Assembly (NCBI GenBank): GCA_035506195.1
Contig: DATJPV010000036.1
Span: 16,100-80,099, forward strand
Reading direction: 5' to 3'
DNA length: 64,000 bases
From: Patescibacteria group bacterium
Lineage (GTDB): Bacteria; Omnitrophota; Gorgyraeia; Gygaellales; Profunditerraquicolaceae
Part shown: piece by piece, positions 12,935 to 44,933 of the stretch
How the letters are laid out: the number at the start of each line of letters is the position of its first letter
Numbering within the stretch: the first letter of the stretch is position 1
The notes under the pieces: generated by a model
Seen by the model: the letters and a program-made list of their open reading frames with translations, nothing else
What the model was told of the DNA's origin: nothing
The model's database searches: none
Made by a program: the position numbers and the translations under genes

Positions 12935-13399
12935 CTATTTCTTGAGCGTAAGCTTGAGGGGTTTTCCTTCCACTTCTAATTCCACTCCATCTTTTACCAC
13001 CGCAGTTACCTTTGCATTCTCGATCGTGTCGCCTTCTTTTACTATTTGATTATTGATCAAGGCGTAACCGTCCTGGTCGGAAAAGAAGACCCCGTTAAGG
13101 ACCAGGTTTGGCCTGGCGGCAGATGGCGCAGTCGCAGGCGCGGCCACAACCGCGGCTGCGGGCGCGGCTACAGCCGCGGGGGCCCGGTTATGCGCCGCGG
13201 CGGCAATGGCCGCGGTCTTCGGCGGCTTCAACCTTGCCAGGGCCTTGACGGAGAGCGTCGAGATCAGGCCGGCCAGAAAGAATCCGCATAGCGCCACGGA
13301 CGCAAACAGCATGTAGAGCCATATTTTGCGCCCGGCAGTTACGTGAGGGGGCACAACTTTTTTTTCGACCTTTCGCAAGGCGTCGTATATAATGCTCAT
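12935..13399 (-). CDS. gspB: GspB-like general secretion pathway protein (ExeB analog)
   Basis: Characteristic GspB N-terminus MSIIYDALRK, a TM helix, an Ala-rich linker, and a small C-terminal beta domain. Overlaps the stop of the gspA-like gene. Confidence 0.6.
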   Translation of the reverse strand: MSIIYDALRKVEKKVVPPHVTAGRKIWLYMLFASVALCGFFLAGLISTLSVKALARLKPPKTAAIAAAAHNRAPAAVAAPAAAVVAAPATAPSAARPNLVLNGVFFSDQDGYALINNQIVKEGDTIENAKVTAVVKDGVELEVEGKPLKLTLKK

Positions 13400-14196
13400 T
13401 GCAGCTCCTGGAGGGATTTCTTGACCAGCGCCTGGTCGATGGTGTTGGTTTCCGCATTGAAGCCGGCCAAAAGCGCCCGGTCGCAGATAATATTGATCAT
13501 ACGGGGGATGCCGGCCGAAGAATCCGAGATTAGGGTGATCGCCTCATCGGTGAAATGCACCCTGCCGTTGGCTCCCGCGGTCTTGAGCCGGTGCATGATG
13601 TATTCCTGGATCTCTTCCCGCGCAAGCTGTGTCACGTGGTACTTTACCGCGATCCTCTGCCGCAGCTGCCGCAAGCTGGGCAGCTCCAGTTTCGCGTTGA
13701 GTTCCGGCTGGCCTACCAGTATGATCTGGATCAGTTTGTCTTTTTCCGTCTCCAGGTTCGACAGGAGGCGGACCTGTTCCAGTTGGGCGGCTTCCAGGTT
13801 CTGCGCCTCATCGATGATCAAGACGACGTTATTACCGAATGCCGAGCGCCGGATCAAAAAACGGTTCAATTCCCAGATAAAAGAGAACCTGCTTTTTTGT
13901 TTTGGCCGGATCCCGAAGTCCCGGACGATGGCCTCCAGTAATTCGATGTCGGAAAAGTTAGGGTTCAGGATAAAAGCGGTCCTGACGTCATCCTGCAGAT
14001 GCTTCAGGAAGAACCGGCAGAGCGTAGTCTTGCCCGTGCCGATCTCTCCGGTAATAACGATGATTCCTTTTCTTTCTTTGACCCCGTATACCAGGTGCGA
14101 AAGGGCTTCTTGGTGCCTGCGGCTGAGGAAAAAGAAGGAAGGGTCGGCGGTGATACTGAACGGTCTTTCTTTTAATCCGTAAAACTGGCAATACAT
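13396..14196 (-). CDS. gspA: GspA/ExeA-like AAA ATPase
   Basis: MYCQFYGLKERPFSIT start typical of ExeA, P-loop GEIGTGKTTL, DEAQ Walker B. The ORF extends to 14253, but a start at 14196 fits the family N-terminus and leaves room for the divergent promoter. Confidence 0.8.
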   Translation of the reverse strand: MYCQFYGLKERPFSITADPSFFFLSRRHQEALSHLVYGVKERKGIIVITGEIGTGKTTLCRFFLKHLQDDVRTAFILNPNFSDIELLEAIVRDFGIRPKQKSRFSFIWELNRFLIRRSAFGNNVVLIIDEAQNLEAAQLEQVRLLSNLETEKDKLIQIILVGQPELNAKLELPSLRQLRQRIAVKYHVTQLAREEIQEYIMHRLKTAGANGRVHFTDEAITLISDSSAGIPRMINIICDRALLAGFNAETNTIDQALVKKSLQELQ

Positions 14197-14237
14197 GGCA
14201 TTTTTATTATAGCAAAAAAGGTTATTTTGTAAAGTAT

Positions 14238-14266
14238 TTGACATCCAGGTCAATATATGTTATAGT
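14238..14266 (+). promoter_or_regulatory. Putative sigma70 promoter for the PilZ operon
   Basis: TTGACA (14238-14243), 17-nt spacer, TATAGT (14261-14266). Confidence 0.5.
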
Positions 14267-14283
14267 TTGCAAGCAAGAGGTAA

Positions 14284-14661
14284 ATGCCACGGTGCCTCAT
14301 GATCAAAGAGGCCGGAATGGTGTTTATAATGGACGAAAAGCGGCGCTTCCCGCGAGTCAGGCTGCAGTCGCCCCTGCGCTACCAGATCCTGGGCAGGCCT
14401 GAAGCCAGAAGTGCAGTCACTAGCAATATCAGCCTCGGTGGCGTTGGTTTCACGGACTCTAGCTTTATCCCCCCATTAAGCACCCTGCAATTAGAGATAG
14501 GTTTCTTATCCTGTATGGTGTCTGCCCGTGGCAGGGTAGCCTGGGCCGCACCCTTACCGCACTCCGACCGCTACCGGCTGGGGATCGAATTTACGGGATT
14601 GGCCGAAAAAGATAAAGAGTGCCTTGCGGATTACATCGGCTTACAGATGGCAGAGGCCTAA
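14284..14661 (+). CDS. PilZ-domain protein (c-di-GMP receptor)
   Basis: RRFPRVRL...LGGVGF PilZ motifs. Confidence 0.7.
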   Translation: MPRCLMIKEAGMVFIMDEKRRFPRVRLQSPLRYQILGRPEARSAVTSNISLGGVGFTDSSFIPPLSTLQLEIGFLSCMVSARGRVAWAAPLPHSDRYRLGIEFTGLAEKDKECLADYIGLQMAEA

Positions 14662-14683
14662 AGTTAAAGAAAGGAAAAGATAA

Positions 14684-14862
14684 TGGTACCGGAAGCAACT
14701 CAAGCACCAGCGCAGGCGCCGGCAGAAAAACAGACCAATTGCCCGGCCTGCAATAAGCCGCTCAAAAGGATCAAACGGTATTATCGCAACGGGAAATTCT
14801 ACTGCACCAAGAAGTGCTGGAAACAGGCGCTCAAGCCCAAAGCGGAAGAGGCCCAGAAATGA
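14684..14862 (+). CDS. Small zinc-ribbon protein (59 aa), YacG-like CPxC...CxxxC
   Basis: Not in the ORF track (under 60 aa). Has a ribosome-binding site, an NCPACNKP...FYCTKKCW motif, and a stop that overlaps the next PilZ start (ATGA at 14859-14862). Confidence 0.5.
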
Positions 14863-15215
14863 AAAAGCACCCCAAGATCGAACGCAGGCTGCACCCCCGC
14901 GTTGAAAAAACATTGCCGTTGAATATCGTCGCCAACGGCTATGACCTGGAAACTACCACCAAAAACGTCTCTTGCGTGGGCGCGTATTGCCATATCAATA
15001 AGTACATTCCCCCTTTTACCAAGATCGCAGTACGGCTTATCTTGCCTATCACCCGCGGCCTGACCCGCAAGACCTATGATGTTGAGTGCAGGGGCGTGGT
15101 GGTAAGGACCGAAGATCAGACCGACGGCGGTTTTAACGTCGCCATATTCTTTAACGGCATCAAGGACGCCCAGCGTCAAAGAATATCCCAGTATATACAT
15201 CAGTTCTTGCCGTAG
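14859..15215 (+). CDS. PilZ-domain protein
   Basis: ERRLHPRVEK...NVSCVGAY PilZ-like motifs. A start at 14859 is favoured over 14814 because of the ATGA coupling. Confidence 0.7.
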   Translation: MKKHPKIERRLHPRVEKTLPLNIVANGYDLETTTKNVSCVGAYCHINKYIPPFTKIAVRLILPITRGLTRKTYDVECRGVVVRTEDQTDGGFNVAIFFNGIKDAQRQRISQYIHQFLP

Positions 15216-15229
15216 TCTTCCGCGCCTAG

Positions 15230-15763
15230 ATGGGAAAAATAGTACAGCGCCTACCGGTTAAACTCTTTACAGGCTTGATCTTCCAGGACAGCGCAATCTT
15301 CGAACAGGCCAAGGCTGTTTTAGCCAGGCATTTTGGCAGGATCGACCTTCAAAGCAGTATACTCCCCTTTATACACACCGACTATTACGAAAAAGAATTC
15401 GGTACCGGCCTTAAGAGGGCGTTTGTAAGTTTCGCCCGCCTTATCCCCGCCGAGGAGCTTAGCCGCATCAAGGTTAAAACCAACCAGATCGAACGCAAGT
15501 TCTGCCGCGCCGAGTCGCGCCGCATCAATATCGACCCCGGCTACCTGGACCTGGGCAAGCTTGTCCTTGCTTCTACCAAAGATCACGGGCACCGCATATA
15601 TCTTGGCCGCGGCATCTATGCGGAGGTAACCCTTTTTTTTCAGGATAAGACATTTCAGCCCTGGCCATGGACGTATCCGGACTATAAGACCGCCGGCTAC
15701 ATCGCCGTCTTAAACCAGATGCGCGCCTGCTATGCCGGTCAGATCAAAACGCGGAGCCGCTGA
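15230..15763 (+). CDS. Hypothetical protein (possibly DUF4416-like)
   Basis: Conserved-looking 177-aa ORF with no catalytic motif recognised. Confidence 0.45.
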   Translation: MGKIVQRLPVKLFTGLIFQDSAIFEQAKAVLARHFGRIDLQSSILPFIHTDYYEKEFGTGLKRAFVSFARLIPAEELSRIKVKTNQIERKFCRAESRRINIDPGYLDLGKLVLASTKDHGHRIYLGRGIYAEVTLFFQDKTFQPWPWTYPDYKTAGYIAVLNQMRACYAGQIKTRSR

Positions 15764-15769
15764 CCCCTT

Positions 15770-16738
15770 ATGTATCCTTCTTATCTGGATGCCCATCGGG
15801 ACGGGAGCTTAGCTAAAGTTGCCGAAGAGGCGCACAGGATACTGAAATCGTGCGCGCTTTGCCCCCGGCGCTGCGGGGTAAACCGCCTCAACAACGAGGT
15901 TGGTTTCTGCAAGACCGGCTCCAAGGCCAGGGTGTATAACTGTATCAGCCACCATGGCGAAGAGCCTCCCATATCGGGCACGCGCGGGTCAGGCGCTATA
16001 TTTTTTTCCGGCTGCACCATGGGCTGCGTGTACTGTCAGAATTACGAGTTCAGCCAGTTCGAGCGGGGAACAGAGATGACGGACCAAGAGCTTGCGGACA
16101 GCATGATCTGCCTGCAGGAAGCCGGCTGCCATAATATCAATTTGGTCACTCCTACGCACCTGCTCCCGCAGATCCTTGCGGCACTCTGCCTTGCTATACC
16201 CAAGGGGCTCAATATCCCCCTAGTATATAATACCTCCGGGTATGAATTGCCGGCAATGGTCAAGATGCTGGCAGGCATAGTGGATGTGTATCTGCCTGAT
16301 ATGCGCTACGCCGACGCCGAAAGCGCGGCCCGCTATTCCGCCTGCGACGATTATCCGGCTTATAACCAGGAGGCGGTACGCCAGATGCATCTACAGGTAG
16401 GAATCCCGGTGTTTGACGAGCCCGGGATCATCCGCCGAGGCCTGATTATTCGGCACCTTGTCTTGCCCAACGCCATCTCCGGGACCGAGAAGATTGCGCA
16501 GTTCATTTCCCGGGAGCTTTCCAGCGACACATACATCAGCTTAATGAGCCAGTATTTTCCCTGTTATAAGGCGCATGAGTTTACACAGATCTGCCGGCGC
16601 CTGAGCAGCCGGGAATACCGGCAGGCCAGAGATATCCTGGAAAAGTATGATTTACATAACGGCTGGTTTCAGGACGGCAGGGGGCTTCTTAGGTTCGTCG
16701 GGACCAGGATCAAACCCGCATGCAAGGATAAGCCATGA
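15770..16738 (+). CDS. Radical SAM protein, PflX-type (pyruvate formate-lyase activase homolog, COG1313-like)
   Basis: Radical SAM CxxxCxxC (GCTMGCVYCQN) plus an extra N-terminal Cys cluster (CPRRCGVN...C). Confidence 0.75.
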   Translation: MYPSYLDAHRDGSLAKVAEEAHRILKSCALCPRRCGVNRLNNEVGFCKTGSKARVYNCISHHGEEPPISGTRGSGAIFFSGCTMGCVYCQNYEFSQFERGTEMTDQELADSMICLQEAGCHNINLVTPTHLLPQILAALCLAIPKGLNIPLVYNTSGYELPAMVKMLAGIVDVYLPDMRYADAESAARYSACDDYPAYNQEAVRQMHLQVGIPVFDEPGIIRRGLIIRHLVLPNAISGTEKIAQFISRELSSDTYISLMSQYFPCYKAHEFTQICRRLSSREYRQARDILEKYDLHNGWFQDGRGLLRFVGTRIKPACKDKP

Positions 16739-18282
16739 CGGTGCACACGCTCCCCGAGATGCTGCGGCATAGCGCCGCGAAACATCCGAAACGGATCGCG
16801 GTCGTTTTCGGGCAAAAGCGGATCAGCTATCGACAGCTCGATGAGGCGACCGAAGCGCTTGCGCGGGGCCTCGTACATGAAGGCATACGCCCGCAGGATA
16901 AAGTCGCGCTCTTCCTGGATAATTGCCCGGAATTCGTTATCGGCTATTTTGCGGTCCTTAAAGCAGCTGCGGTGGTCGTTCCGATCAATTACATGTTCAA
17001 AATAGAAGAGAGCAGGTTTATCCTTGAAGACAGCCAGGCTTCCTGCCTGATTACGGCGCGACCTTATGTCGAGATGGCCGAAGAATTGCTGGTGCGGGTG
17101 CCTACCCTGAATAAAGTTATTACGACGACTGCCGTCCGGCACGATATCCCTGATTTCGAGCGGATCAGGCAGGAAGGCTCGGCTGCGGTGCGCTGGCCGT
17201 CGGTACATCCGCAGGAATTGGCGGTGATCCTGTATACCTCCGGCACTACGGGCCATCCTAAAGGGGCGATGCTGTCACACTACAACCTTATCTCCAACGC
17301 CCGCGACGCTTCCACGGCTATCCGCGTAAACCACCGGGATACCTTTATTTGTTTTCTGCCGTTGTTCCATTCTTTCGCTGCGACCGTCTGCATGAACCTG
17401 CCCTTTTTCATCGGCGCGCGCACGGTGGTGATGAAATCGGTCAGGCCCTTTAAGCGCCTCATCCGCAGCGTGCGCAGGAACAAGGTCACCATTTTTGTCG
17501 GTATCCCTTCGGTGTACACTATCCTGAAGGATACCAAGCTTCCCGGCTTCTTGCGGACCCCCCTGATCAAGCTGTTCAATCCGGTGCGGGTCTGCGTTTC
17601 CGGAGCTGCGGCCCTGCCTTCGGAGACGTTCCGCGGTTTCGAAAAAAAATTCCGTGTTCCTCTTATCGAAGGCTACGGCTTGACCGAGGCATCTCCCGTG
17701 GTCACGATCAACCCGGTACGCGGCCCCCGAAAACCCGGATCGATAGGCTTGAGCCTTTCCCGGTCCATCGAGGCGAAGGTAGTGGATGAGAAAGGCGGGG
17801 CATTGGGTCCGGAAGACATCGGAGAGCTCATCGTGCGCGGGCCTAACGTTATGAAAGGCTACTATCGCCATAGCGAGGCGACCGCAGAGACCGTCAAGGA
17901 GGGTTGGCTGTATACGGGGGATATGGCCAAGTTCGACCGGGACGGGTTCTTTTACATCGTGGGCAGGAAGAAAGAAATGATCAACGTGCGGGGCTTAAAT
18001 GTCTATCCGCGCGAAATAGAAGAAGTACTGTATCAGAATCAGAAGATAAAGGAGGCGGCGGTTATCGGCCTGCCGGACCCGCATAAAGGAGAGGTCCCCA
18101 AAGGGTTTGTGGTCCTTAAAGCCGAAGAAGCTGCATCCGAACAGGAGATCATCCATTATCTGCGCGAGCGGCTTGCCCCCTACAAGATACCCAGATATAT
18201 AGAATTCAGAAGTTCCCTTCCGAAAAACGCCGCCGGCAAGATCCTTAAGCGCCTACTCCTGGAAGAAGAGGCGCGGCGATGA
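16735..18282 (+). CDS. Long-chain fatty acid--CoA ligase (AMP-binding)
   Basis: AMP-binding motif ILYTSGTTGHPKGAMLSH and a C-terminal PKNAAGKILKR lysine motif. Confidence 0.85.
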   Translation: MTVHTLPEMLRHSAAKHPKRIAVVFGQKRISYRQLDEATEALARGLVHEGIRPQDKVALFLDNCPEFVIGYFAVLKAAAVVVPINYMFKIEESRFILEDSQASCLITARPYVEMAEELLVRVPTLNKVITTTAVRHDIPDFERIRQEGSAAVRWPSVHPQELAVILYTSGTTGHPKGAMLSHYNLISNARDASTAIRVNHRDTFICFLPLFHSFAATVCMNLPFFIGARTVVMKSVRPFKRLIRSVRRNKVTIFVGIPSVYTILKDTKLPGFLRTPLIKLFNPVRVCVSGAAALPSETFRGFEKKFRVPLIEGYGLTEASPVVTINPVRGPRKPGSIGLSLSRSIEAKVVDEKGGALGPEDIGELIVRGPNVMKGYYRHSEATAETVKEGWLYTGDMAKFDRDGFFYIVGRKKEMINVRGLNVYPREIEEVLYQNQKIKEAAVIGLPDPHKGEVPKGFVVLKAEEAASEQEIIHYLRERLAPYKIPRYIEFRSSLPKNAAGKILKRLLLEEEARR

Positions 18283-44615: not shown

Positions 44616-44933
44616 ATGCTAGAGGACCGCAGGTGTTTTTTCCGTTTCCCCGCAACCGTGCCGTTGCGCTACCAGGATAACGACGGCGGTGTGCAGGGAT
44701 GGGGAGAAACGCACGATATCAGCGCCAAGGGGATCGGTTTTTTCACCGATCGAGAGATGCCGCCTGACACAAGCCTTGATATATGCCTGCAGGTCCCCGA
44801 TAGGGAAGATGGAATCTGCGTAAAAGGCAGTATCGTATGGTCGCGCCTGGTTGCTCCGCAGCGCTACCGGGTCGGCGTAAGCCTGGAAAAAGTGGATTTC
44901 ATCAGCATGTCGCACGTGTTGCGTTTGGCCTAA
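44616..44933 (+). CDS. PilZ-domain protein
   Basis: RRCFFRFPATVPLRYQ...DISAKGIGF PilZ motifs. Confidence 0.7.
   Translation: MLEDRRCFFRFPATVPLRYQDNDGGVQGWGETHDISAKGIGFFTDREMPPDTSLDICLQVPDREDGICVKGSIVWSRLVAPQRYRVGVSLEKVDFISMSHVLRLA

Follow-up and report, generated by a model that had tools for sequence, protein, structure and literature searches.

A Cys4 zinc-finger protein family of the Omnitrophota encoded beside stand-alone PilZ genes: conservation, genomic context and possible roles

Stand-alone PilZ proteins are the commonest receptors of cyclic di-GMP (c-di-GMP), and for most of them we know of no output partner. In the CdbA/CdbS system of Myxococcus xanthus, a small DNA-binding protein is encoded beside a stand-alone PilZ protein. 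Among small zinc proteins, YacG (DUF329, PF03884) is an endogenous DNA gyrase inhibitor of Proteobacteria, and its conserved C-terminal tail binds GyrB. Here we describe a 59-amino-acid (aa) open reading frame (ORF), denoted ZR, that lies between two PilZ genes (PilZ1 upstream, PilZ2 downstream) in a 64,000-nucleotide (nt) stretch of contig DATJPV010000036.1 (GenBank assembly GCA_035506195.1, positions 16,100 to 80,099 of the forward strand), referred to below as the window. Related loci belong almost entirely to the Omnitrophota, a still uncultivated phylum whose cells are known to be very small. A first-pass annotation of the window had presented the ORF as an unannotated, YacG-like zinc ribbon that is translationally coupled to PilZ2 and may form, with the two PilZ proteins, a small c-di-GMP effector module. 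The homologues, genomic context and predicted structure of ZR bear on each part of that proposal.

ZR is a real, strongly conserved gene under purifying selection. It encodes the peptide MVPEATQAPAQAPAEKQTNCPACNKPLKRIKRYYRNGKFYCTKKCWKQALKPKAEEAQK, which is strongly basic (isoelectric point (pI) 9.8, net charge +10 over 59 aa) and carries four cysteines spaced C20-x2-C23-x17-C41-x3-C45. The Cys motif and the ribosome-binding site reported for the ORF were both recovered (the former as CxxC-x17-CxxxC; Table 1), and the ORF itself stands, with its start one base lower, at 14683, than the 14684 first given. The stop codon TGA (14860-14862) shares bases with the ATG of PilZ2 (14859-14861), giving the sequence ATGA, and the Shine-Dalgarno sequence of PilZ2 lies within the C-terminal Glu codons of ZR; the pattern GAGG/GAGA...AAATGA recurs at this junction in related loci. 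The description of the ORF as unannotated did not hold, since NCBI lists an identical protein (hypothetical protein VMD52_06415) and ZR is predicted by gene callers on other assemblies as well.

A word-indexed protein search returned 309 homologues of ZR, almost all of 50-73 aa, and nearly all named ones are from Candidatus Omnitrophota. An exhaustive search of representatives of 50%-identity clusters found ZR relatives in 99 clusters at E<=1e-3, and contigs taken from one genome per species placed a relative in 169 species, almost all of them Omnitrophota. Among the aligned members no substitution occurs at the four Cys or at Y33, Y34 and R35, and the wider family follows the signature NC-x2-C-[NK]K-x8-10-[RWQ]YYR[ND]G-x-[FY][FY]C-x-[KR]-x-C-[WFY]. 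When the 32 codons of the core are compared pairwise, nucleotide identity averages 0.87 at each of the first two codon positions and 0.51 at the third, a pattern that indicates purifying selection on the plus-strand frame of ZR. The core is also the most conserved protein of the operon (mean p-distance 0.28, as against 0.38-0.44 for the others). Neither Pfam nor NCBIfam contains a family that reaches threshold for ZR. These observations define an undescribed family of small zinc-finger proteins that is nearly confined to the Omnitrophota. The same searches also returned three longer proteins, P0152 (522 aa), P0215 (299 aa) and P0217 (363 aa), which match the ZR query weakly and contain 4-8 tandem related CxxC...[YW]C..C fingers (for example CPDCxGxLKYVEKYDRHWCxxCKKY) joined by acidic or Pro-rich linkers; they may constitute a separate repeat family.

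Gene order around ZR was determined with tblastn, using the proteins of the window as queries, in a set of 80 close loci (L001-L080); denominators below are the numbers of loci with enough sequence. The order common to these loci begins with AroB; a GspB-like gene and an ExeA-like ATPase come next, both on the opposite strand, and after them PilZ1, ZR, PilZ2, DUF4416, a radical SAM gene and an acyl-CoA ligase. PilZ2 lies directly 3' of ZR in all 79 loci and is itself followed by DUF4416 in 76 of 77. PilZ1 is missing in 19 of 78, and the suggestion that ZR is wedged between two PilZ genes thus describes about three quarters of the close relatives and not all of them. At the ZR/PilZ2 junction, 44 of 77 loci have an ATGA and 21 an overlap of a single base (TAATG or TGATG); in the remaining 12 the two genes lie within 29 nt of each other. 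This stop/start overlap in 65 of the 77 loci bears out the proposed translational coupling of ZR to the second PilZ gene.

Both flanking genes are PilZ genes, as had been supposed from the sequence. Their products score 44.7 bits (PilZ1) and 41.4 bits (PilZ2) against Pfam PilZ (PF07238), for which the gathering cutoff is 22.5, and both carry the RxxxR and NxSxxG motifs of c-di-GMP binding. In PilZ1 these read RRFPR and NISLGG and both are kept in 53 of 57 orthologues; the longest PilZ1 ORF begins at 14284, and the likely start is the ATG at 14317, preceded by GAGG at 14308-14311. In PilZ2 they read RLHPR and NVSCVG, and RxxxR and [DN]xSxxG are kept in all 77 orthologues. An AlphaFold2 (AF2) model of PilZ2 (predicted local distance difference test (pLDDT) score 82) shows a canonical six-stranded PilZ beta barrel, with strands over residues 20-97 and a C-terminal helix over 103-114. 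Foldseek matched this model to MotI/DgrA (5vx6, E=1.6e-5) and to the PilZ domain of Alg44 (4rt0, E=5e-5), with a probability of 1.00, and also to MapZ in its complex with CheR1 (5xly); all are c-di-GMP-bound PilZ structures. Beside the ligand motifs, PilZ2 has an invariant patch specific to its family (Y43-C44 and K48-Y49-x-P51-P52-F53-T54), which on sequence grounds is a candidate partner surface. The window contains a third stand-alone PilZ gene far from ZR (44616-44933, plus strand, 105 aa, Pfam 1.2e-12) that overlaps a 110-aa ORF on the minus strand. The total is 3 PilZ genes in 64 kb, a background of about 1 per 20 kb.

In the window, ZR, PilZ1 and PilZ2 are co-oriented behind one conserved promoter, and ZR and PilZ2 are both strongly conserved. 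The promoter had been described as a good sigma-70 promoter, an assessment that the related loci reinforce: promoters with at least 10 of 12 matches to the form TTGACA-16/17-TATAxT stand in front of the module's first gene at 68 of 78 loci. Their consensus is TTGACAt.....taAATaTaTGtTATatT, and the conserved layout comprises TTGACA, a spacer of 16 or 17 nt ending in aAATaTaTGt, and TATAtT, that is, an extended -10 promoter. In most of them a perfect TTGACA is combined with a TGn extended -10 element, an unusual uniformity across species. In loci that lack PilZ1, the conserved promoter stands directly before ZR.

More distant relatives of ZR were compared in a second set of 80 metagenome loci (L082-L161), together with L081. 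Distant ZR proteins usually have long N-terminal extensions rich in Pro, Glu, Lys and Ala, and their genes usually lie inside clusters of 3-5 PilZ genes. Most distant loci belong to the same island as the window, with an ExeA-like ATPase 50-57% and a DUF4416 protein 40-54% identical to those of the window. Gene order has nevertheless changed. In most distant loci, ZR lies directly 3' of a PilZ gene that is not of the PilZ2 type, at a gap of -4 to about 30 nt, and the PilZ2 orthologue is found 5 to 2500 nt further downstream, often separated from ZR by inserted flavin reductase and HIT genes. One or two extra PilZ genes also occur, one with a hydrophobic N-terminal segment before the PilZ domain, and a TIGR04073 exosortase-associated protein is encoded between two PilZ genes. 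Among the 49 distant loci with at least 400 nt on each side of ZR, a PilZ gene is directly adjacent in 32 and lies within 3 kb in 41. The genetic link between ZR and PilZ is therefore strong and survives rearrangement, yet it is not universal, and the PilZ-linked loci derive from one ancestral island. As a separate observation, the extensions before the finger are repetitive and 60-170 residues long in L123, L126-L128, L135, L136 and L148; some of these extended homologues occur singly, or behind a small EF-Tu-domain-2-like protein, and have no PilZ gene nearby.

These patterns point, tentatively and with somewhat less than an even chance in our estimation, to a role for ZR in which it partners a stand-alone PilZ receptor stoichiometrically or serves as its output subunit. 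The conserved, strong extended -10 promoter serves ZR and one or two canonical stand-alone PilZ receptors alike, and in the clade of the window the stop/start overlap couples translation of ZR to that of PilZ2, which under this proposal would hold the two in fixed proportion. ZR would bind PilZ2, and possibly PilZ1, as an adaptor or output subunit. The PilZ protein would sense c-di-GMP, and ligand bound to its barrel may alter the contacts that the basic finger makes with nucleic acid or with an acidic protein surface, in analogy to single-domain PilZ adaptors, of which MapZ with its target CheR1 is an example. A more specific version, which we consider unlikely, is that ZR and its PilZ neighbor or neighbors form a new two-component c-di-GMP effector in which PilZ gates a nucleic-acid-binding finger, possibly at the operon's own leader or promoter; the pair would then be a c-di-GMP-responsive regulator specific to the phylum, and ZR would define a new bacterial zinc-finger family.

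Several observations weigh against a ZR-PilZ partnership. Fusions of ZR to PilZ were found neither among the ZR homologues, where the longer matches are low-complexity extensions or unrelated multi-finger repeat proteins, nor in the best 120 of 395 PilZ2 homologues, all of which are 116-143 aa long. PilZ2 is itself basic (pI about 9.7) and thus offers no charge complementarity to ZR. Because the close loci were retrieved with patterns derived from the ZR peptide, the apparent invariance of stretches such as EKQTNC is in part an ascertainment effect; distant members have E[KR]P[TAS]NC at the same place. Three further points count equally in favor of the principal rival, namely that ZR is an autonomous small protein that binds nucleic acid or associates with the nucleoid or the ribosome, and whose PilZ neighbors reflect inherited gene order in one conserved genomic island. 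First, 8 of the 49 distant loci (e.g., L126-L128 and L135) have no PilZ gene within 3 kb, and at PilZ-free loci ZR is a single gene with neighbors such as purine-biosynthesis-like or dapA genes. Second, all PilZ-linked loci share a single macro-synteny (ExeA-like ATPase ... DUF4416), so that the ZR-PilZ adjacencies are not independent events. Third, a mirror-tree comparison controlled for the radical SAM protein gave a partial r of 0.25 for ZR and PilZ2, no stronger than the 0.26 for PilZ2 and DUF4416, and thus no signal of specific co-evolution.

The charge of +10 in 59 aa and the Lys-rich helix are likewise compatible with an autonomous nucleic-acid-binding protein, as is the finding that relatives with low-complexity extensions can stand alone among unrelated genes, often flanked by genes on the opposite strand. 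Inherited order accounts less readily for the stop/start overlap, which is kept in 84% of loci despite a divergence of about 42% between PilZ2 proteins. It also accounts poorly for the behavior of ZR when the neighborhood changes: where PilZ1 has been lost, ZR remains with PilZ2, and where genes have been inserted before PilZ2, ZR remains within 30 nt of the upstream PilZ gene. On this balance we regard an autonomous role for ZR as somewhat unlikely.

A second alternative is that ZR binds RNA or DNA to regulate its own operon, at the promoter or at a GCCACGG element in the leader, and is modulated by PilZ and c-di-GMP. The basic finger would suit such a function, and the leader between the promoter and PilZ1 contains a conserved 7-mer in a potential hairpin. 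The motif GCC[AG]CGG (GCCGCAG in one locus), with purine-rich 5' and pyrimidine-rich 3' flanks, is present in 36 of the 57 loci that contain PilZ1. Reading frames over the 7-mer vary between loci, which indicates that it is not coding. In most loci the element is predicted to fold as a hairpin; its arms resemble Shine-Dalgarno and anti-Shine-Dalgarno sequences, and the CCUC of the anti-Shine-Dalgarno-like 3' arm could alternatively pair with, and so sequester, the true Shine-Dalgarno sequence. The distribution of the motif, however, does not follow that of ZR. It is missing in 21 of the 57 PilZ1 loci, in all 80 distant loci and in all but one of the loci that lack PilZ1, in that one lying upstream of ZR, whereas ZR is present in all of them. 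Covariation in the hairpin was also not significant: arms from the same locus pair at -5.97 kcal/mol, compared with -5.56 kcal/mol for swapped arms (permutation p ~0.07), and in a fixed register 61% of cells pair as against 58.8% in shuffles. An Rfam scan of positions 13800-15800 returned no match at E<=1. The leader element may be specific to this lineage, and autoregulation by ZR appears improbable.

The third alternative is that ZR is a YacG-type inhibitor of DNA gyrase. In the AF2 model of ZR (mean pLDDT 72.5, about 84 for residues 20-50), two zinc knuckles enclose a beta hairpin (33-40), a helix (43-57) follows the second knuckle, and the ends are disordered; the predicted anatomy is a short disordered N-terminal tail, one Cys4 treble clef and a Lys-rich C-terminal helix. 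The closest structural matches of the model are LIM halves, the zinc-binding domain of ClpX and MYND fingers. At the profile level, the second half of LIM matched 28 of 30 ZR members scanned, weakly and under the gathering score (best E=4e-4); ZR of the window covers only positions 28-56 of PF00412, with 18.1 bits against a cutoff of 22.9. Assignment of ZR to the LIM domains was rejected, since LIM requires two contiguous fingers with eight Cys/His ligands and ZR has only four Cys and a match under threshold. Other matches among the 30 members were to a membrane-protein zinc ribbon (16), MYND-like fingers (10), Ros/MucR (6) and the FCS-type zf-FLZ (4, best E=0.007). A profile of the ZR family searched against all PDB sequences matched best the MYM-type finger of ZMYM5 (2das, E=0.045), and ZR shows the MYM/FCS/TRASH-like pattern CxxC-x(17-22)-[FY]C[ST]xxC, its profile scores for this class being marginal. 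The modeled fold is best described as a generic treble-clef zinc finger, weakly similar to a LIM half or to MYM fingers.

What ZR has in common with YacG is the type of Cys scaffold (NCPxCxK...[FY]C[ST]K[KR]C). A comparison with hhalign, in which a provisional E. coli YacG sequence was used, gave a probability of 52% over 27 columns that span the two Cys knuckles only, and one JGI record labels a ZR homologue YacG/DUF329. Pfam YacG was not reported for ZR of the window at E<=1 and was found in only 1 of the 30 members (E=0.035); NCBIfam gave no match; YacG was absent from the PDB matches of the family profile at E<=10; and structure searches with the ZR model did not match the solved YacG structures (1lv3, 4tma). 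The second knuckle of ZR reads [FY]YC[TSN]K[KR]C after a spacing of x17 that includes the YYRNG hairpin, compared with FCSxRC and x15 in YacG. After C45, ZR has a Trp (W-K/R-x) and then a variable Lys/Glu-rich helix, in place of the acidic, Trp-containing tail through which YacG binds GyrB, and a DLGxW-type tail of this kind was not found in either 30 or 78 aligned members. The likeness to YacG noted at first therefore holds for the four-Cys scaffold and fails for family membership by profile, tail and structure. Judged from these sequence and model comparisons, ZR is not a member of the YacG family, and we consider a function as gyrase inhibitor highly improbable.

That the ORF is a chance open frame in a long intergenic or leader sequence, as its length below a 60-aa cutoff might suggest, has a negligible probability given hundreds of homologues, invariant Cys, a coding-type substitution pattern and calls by independent gene callers. 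A 90-aa ORF on the minus strand (14641..14913) was considered as an alternative gene and ruled out, because third-position variation tracks the plus-strand frame of ZR.

Table 1. Features of the ZR locus, in positions of the window.
Feature	Position	Strand	Description	Basis
Sigma-70-type promoter	14238..14266	+	TTGACA-17-TATAGT, extended -10 TG at 14258-14259	Score 11/12
Leader element	14277..14298	+	Possible hairpin: GAGGTA, loop with GCCACGG (14286-14292), TGCCTC	Uncertain status
PilZ1	14317..14661	+	Stand-alone PilZ c-di-GMP receptor (predicted)	Pfam PilZ 1.8e-11
Shine-Dalgarno sequence of ZR	14671..14675	+	AAGGA, 7 nt 5' of ATG	Read from sequence
ZR	14683..14862	+	59-aa basic Cys4 treble-clef zinc-finger protein (C20, C23, C41, C45)	ORF reading, homologues, AF2 model
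Shine-Dalgarno sequence of PilZ2	14848..14851	+	GAGG, 7 nt before ATG 14859	
PilZ2	14859..15215	+	Stand-alone canonical PilZ receptor (predicted), 118 aa	Pfam PilZ 2e-10
DUF4416 gene	15230..15763	+	14 nt after PilZ2	Pfam DUF4416 4e-62
Radical SAM gene	15770..16738	+	6-nt gap; syntenic in related loci	Pfam Radical_SAM and Fer4_12
Acyl-CoA ligase gene	16735..18282	+	-4 nt, start overlaps radical SAM stop; syntenic	NCBIfam long-chain-fatty-acid--CoA ligase, 498.8 bits

The three genes of the proposed module are not self-contained. The intergenic gaps of 14, 6 and -4 nt that follow indicate that PilZ1, ZR and PilZ2 are the head of a longer operon, which continues into DUF4416, the radical SAM gene and the acyl-CoA ligase, and no terminator-like site was found between PilZ2 and DUF4416. 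The tightly packed block keeps its synteny with ZR-PilZ2 in nearly all of the 80 close loci, as DUF4416 does in distant loci too. The N-terminus of the radical SAM protein (CxxRCxVNR) appears PflX-like. Between 18279 and 19187 the operon goes on with genes for a DUF2062 membrane protein and for a small protein whose N-terminus has a prepilin-type methylation motif.

Upstream and divergent from the promoter is a pair of minus-strand genes, one GspB/GspC-like (12935-13399) and one encoding an ExeA-like AAA ATPase (13396-14253). The ATPase scores 308.6 bits against TIGR03015 (XrtA/PEP-CTERM system-associated ATPase), just below the cutoff of 324.5. A neighborhood connected with an exosortase or with secretion is a possible setting for the PilZ island. 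The listed start of the ExeA-like gene, a TTG at 14253, falls within the promoter region; its orthologues begin with MY(R/C)xF(F/Y)GL, which corresponds to the ATG at 14196. This ATG is only about 10 nt past a minus-strand -10 box (TTTACA-16-TATAAT, ending at 14206), and the ExeA-like mRNA may be leaderless or nearly so. The NCBI record that holds the identical proteins is labelled 'Patescibacteria group bacterium', and the named homologues and syntenic loci are essentially all from Candidatus Omnitrophota; the Patescibacteria label of the bin looks doubtful.

In the library searched, no paper was found on a zinc-finger partner of PilZ, on the ZR family or on DUF4416. The candidate partner described here is encoded in the same operon as PilZ, is translationally coupled to it, and has a core more conserved than the neighboring enzymes. 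If the partnership is real, the pair would be a minimal c-di-GMP output module made of two small soluble proteins, and ZR a new family of bacterial microproteins. If it is not, ZR is still an undescribed, widespread and highly conserved zinc-finger protein of the Omnitrophota for which Pfam and NCBIfam hold no model.

Among described zinc fingers, the best matches to ZR in sequence and structure are eukaryotic treble clefs, namely the LIM second half and the MYM (FCS) and MYND fingers, in which a hairpin likewise lies between two zinc knuckles and a helix comes last. LIM domains, however, have two zinc sites with 8 ligands where ZR has one site with 4 Cys, and the matches to LIM, MYM and MYND all fall below the family thresholds and do not support common descent. 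YacG and ZR are alike in being small, in standing alone and in having a single Cys4 zinc site, which reads CPxCxK...[FY]C[ST]x[KR]C. They differ in the x17 spacing of ZR, with its inserted invariant YYR[ND]G beta hairpin, in the lack of a conserved C-terminal tail in ZR, and in genomic context, which is PilZ genes for ZR and the coaE/zapD neighborhood for YacG.

Among c-di-GMP systems, CdbA/CdbS resembles the ZR locus in pairing, within one operon, a stand-alone PilZ protein with a small basic one, and in the link between c-di-GMP and a nucleic-acid-binding partner, which for ZR is a proposed one. CdbA, however, is a ribbon-helix-helix protein that itself binds c-di-GMP, whereas ZR is a Cys4 zinc finger, and we found no homology between them. 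MapZ (PA4608) in its complexes with CheR1 (5xly, 5y4r) offers a parallel on the receptor side: PilZ2 is likewise a stand-alone canonical PilZ protein, its model matches MapZ, and receptors of this kind bind a partner protein. The partner of MapZ is an unlinked enzyme, whereas the one proposed for PilZ2 is a 59-aa zinc finger whose gene shares the operon and is coupled to PilZ2 in translation. Read from sequence, the ZR-PilZ pair would thus be a variation on the known theme of a stand-alone PilZ plus a partner, with a robust genetic link to c-di-GMP receptors.

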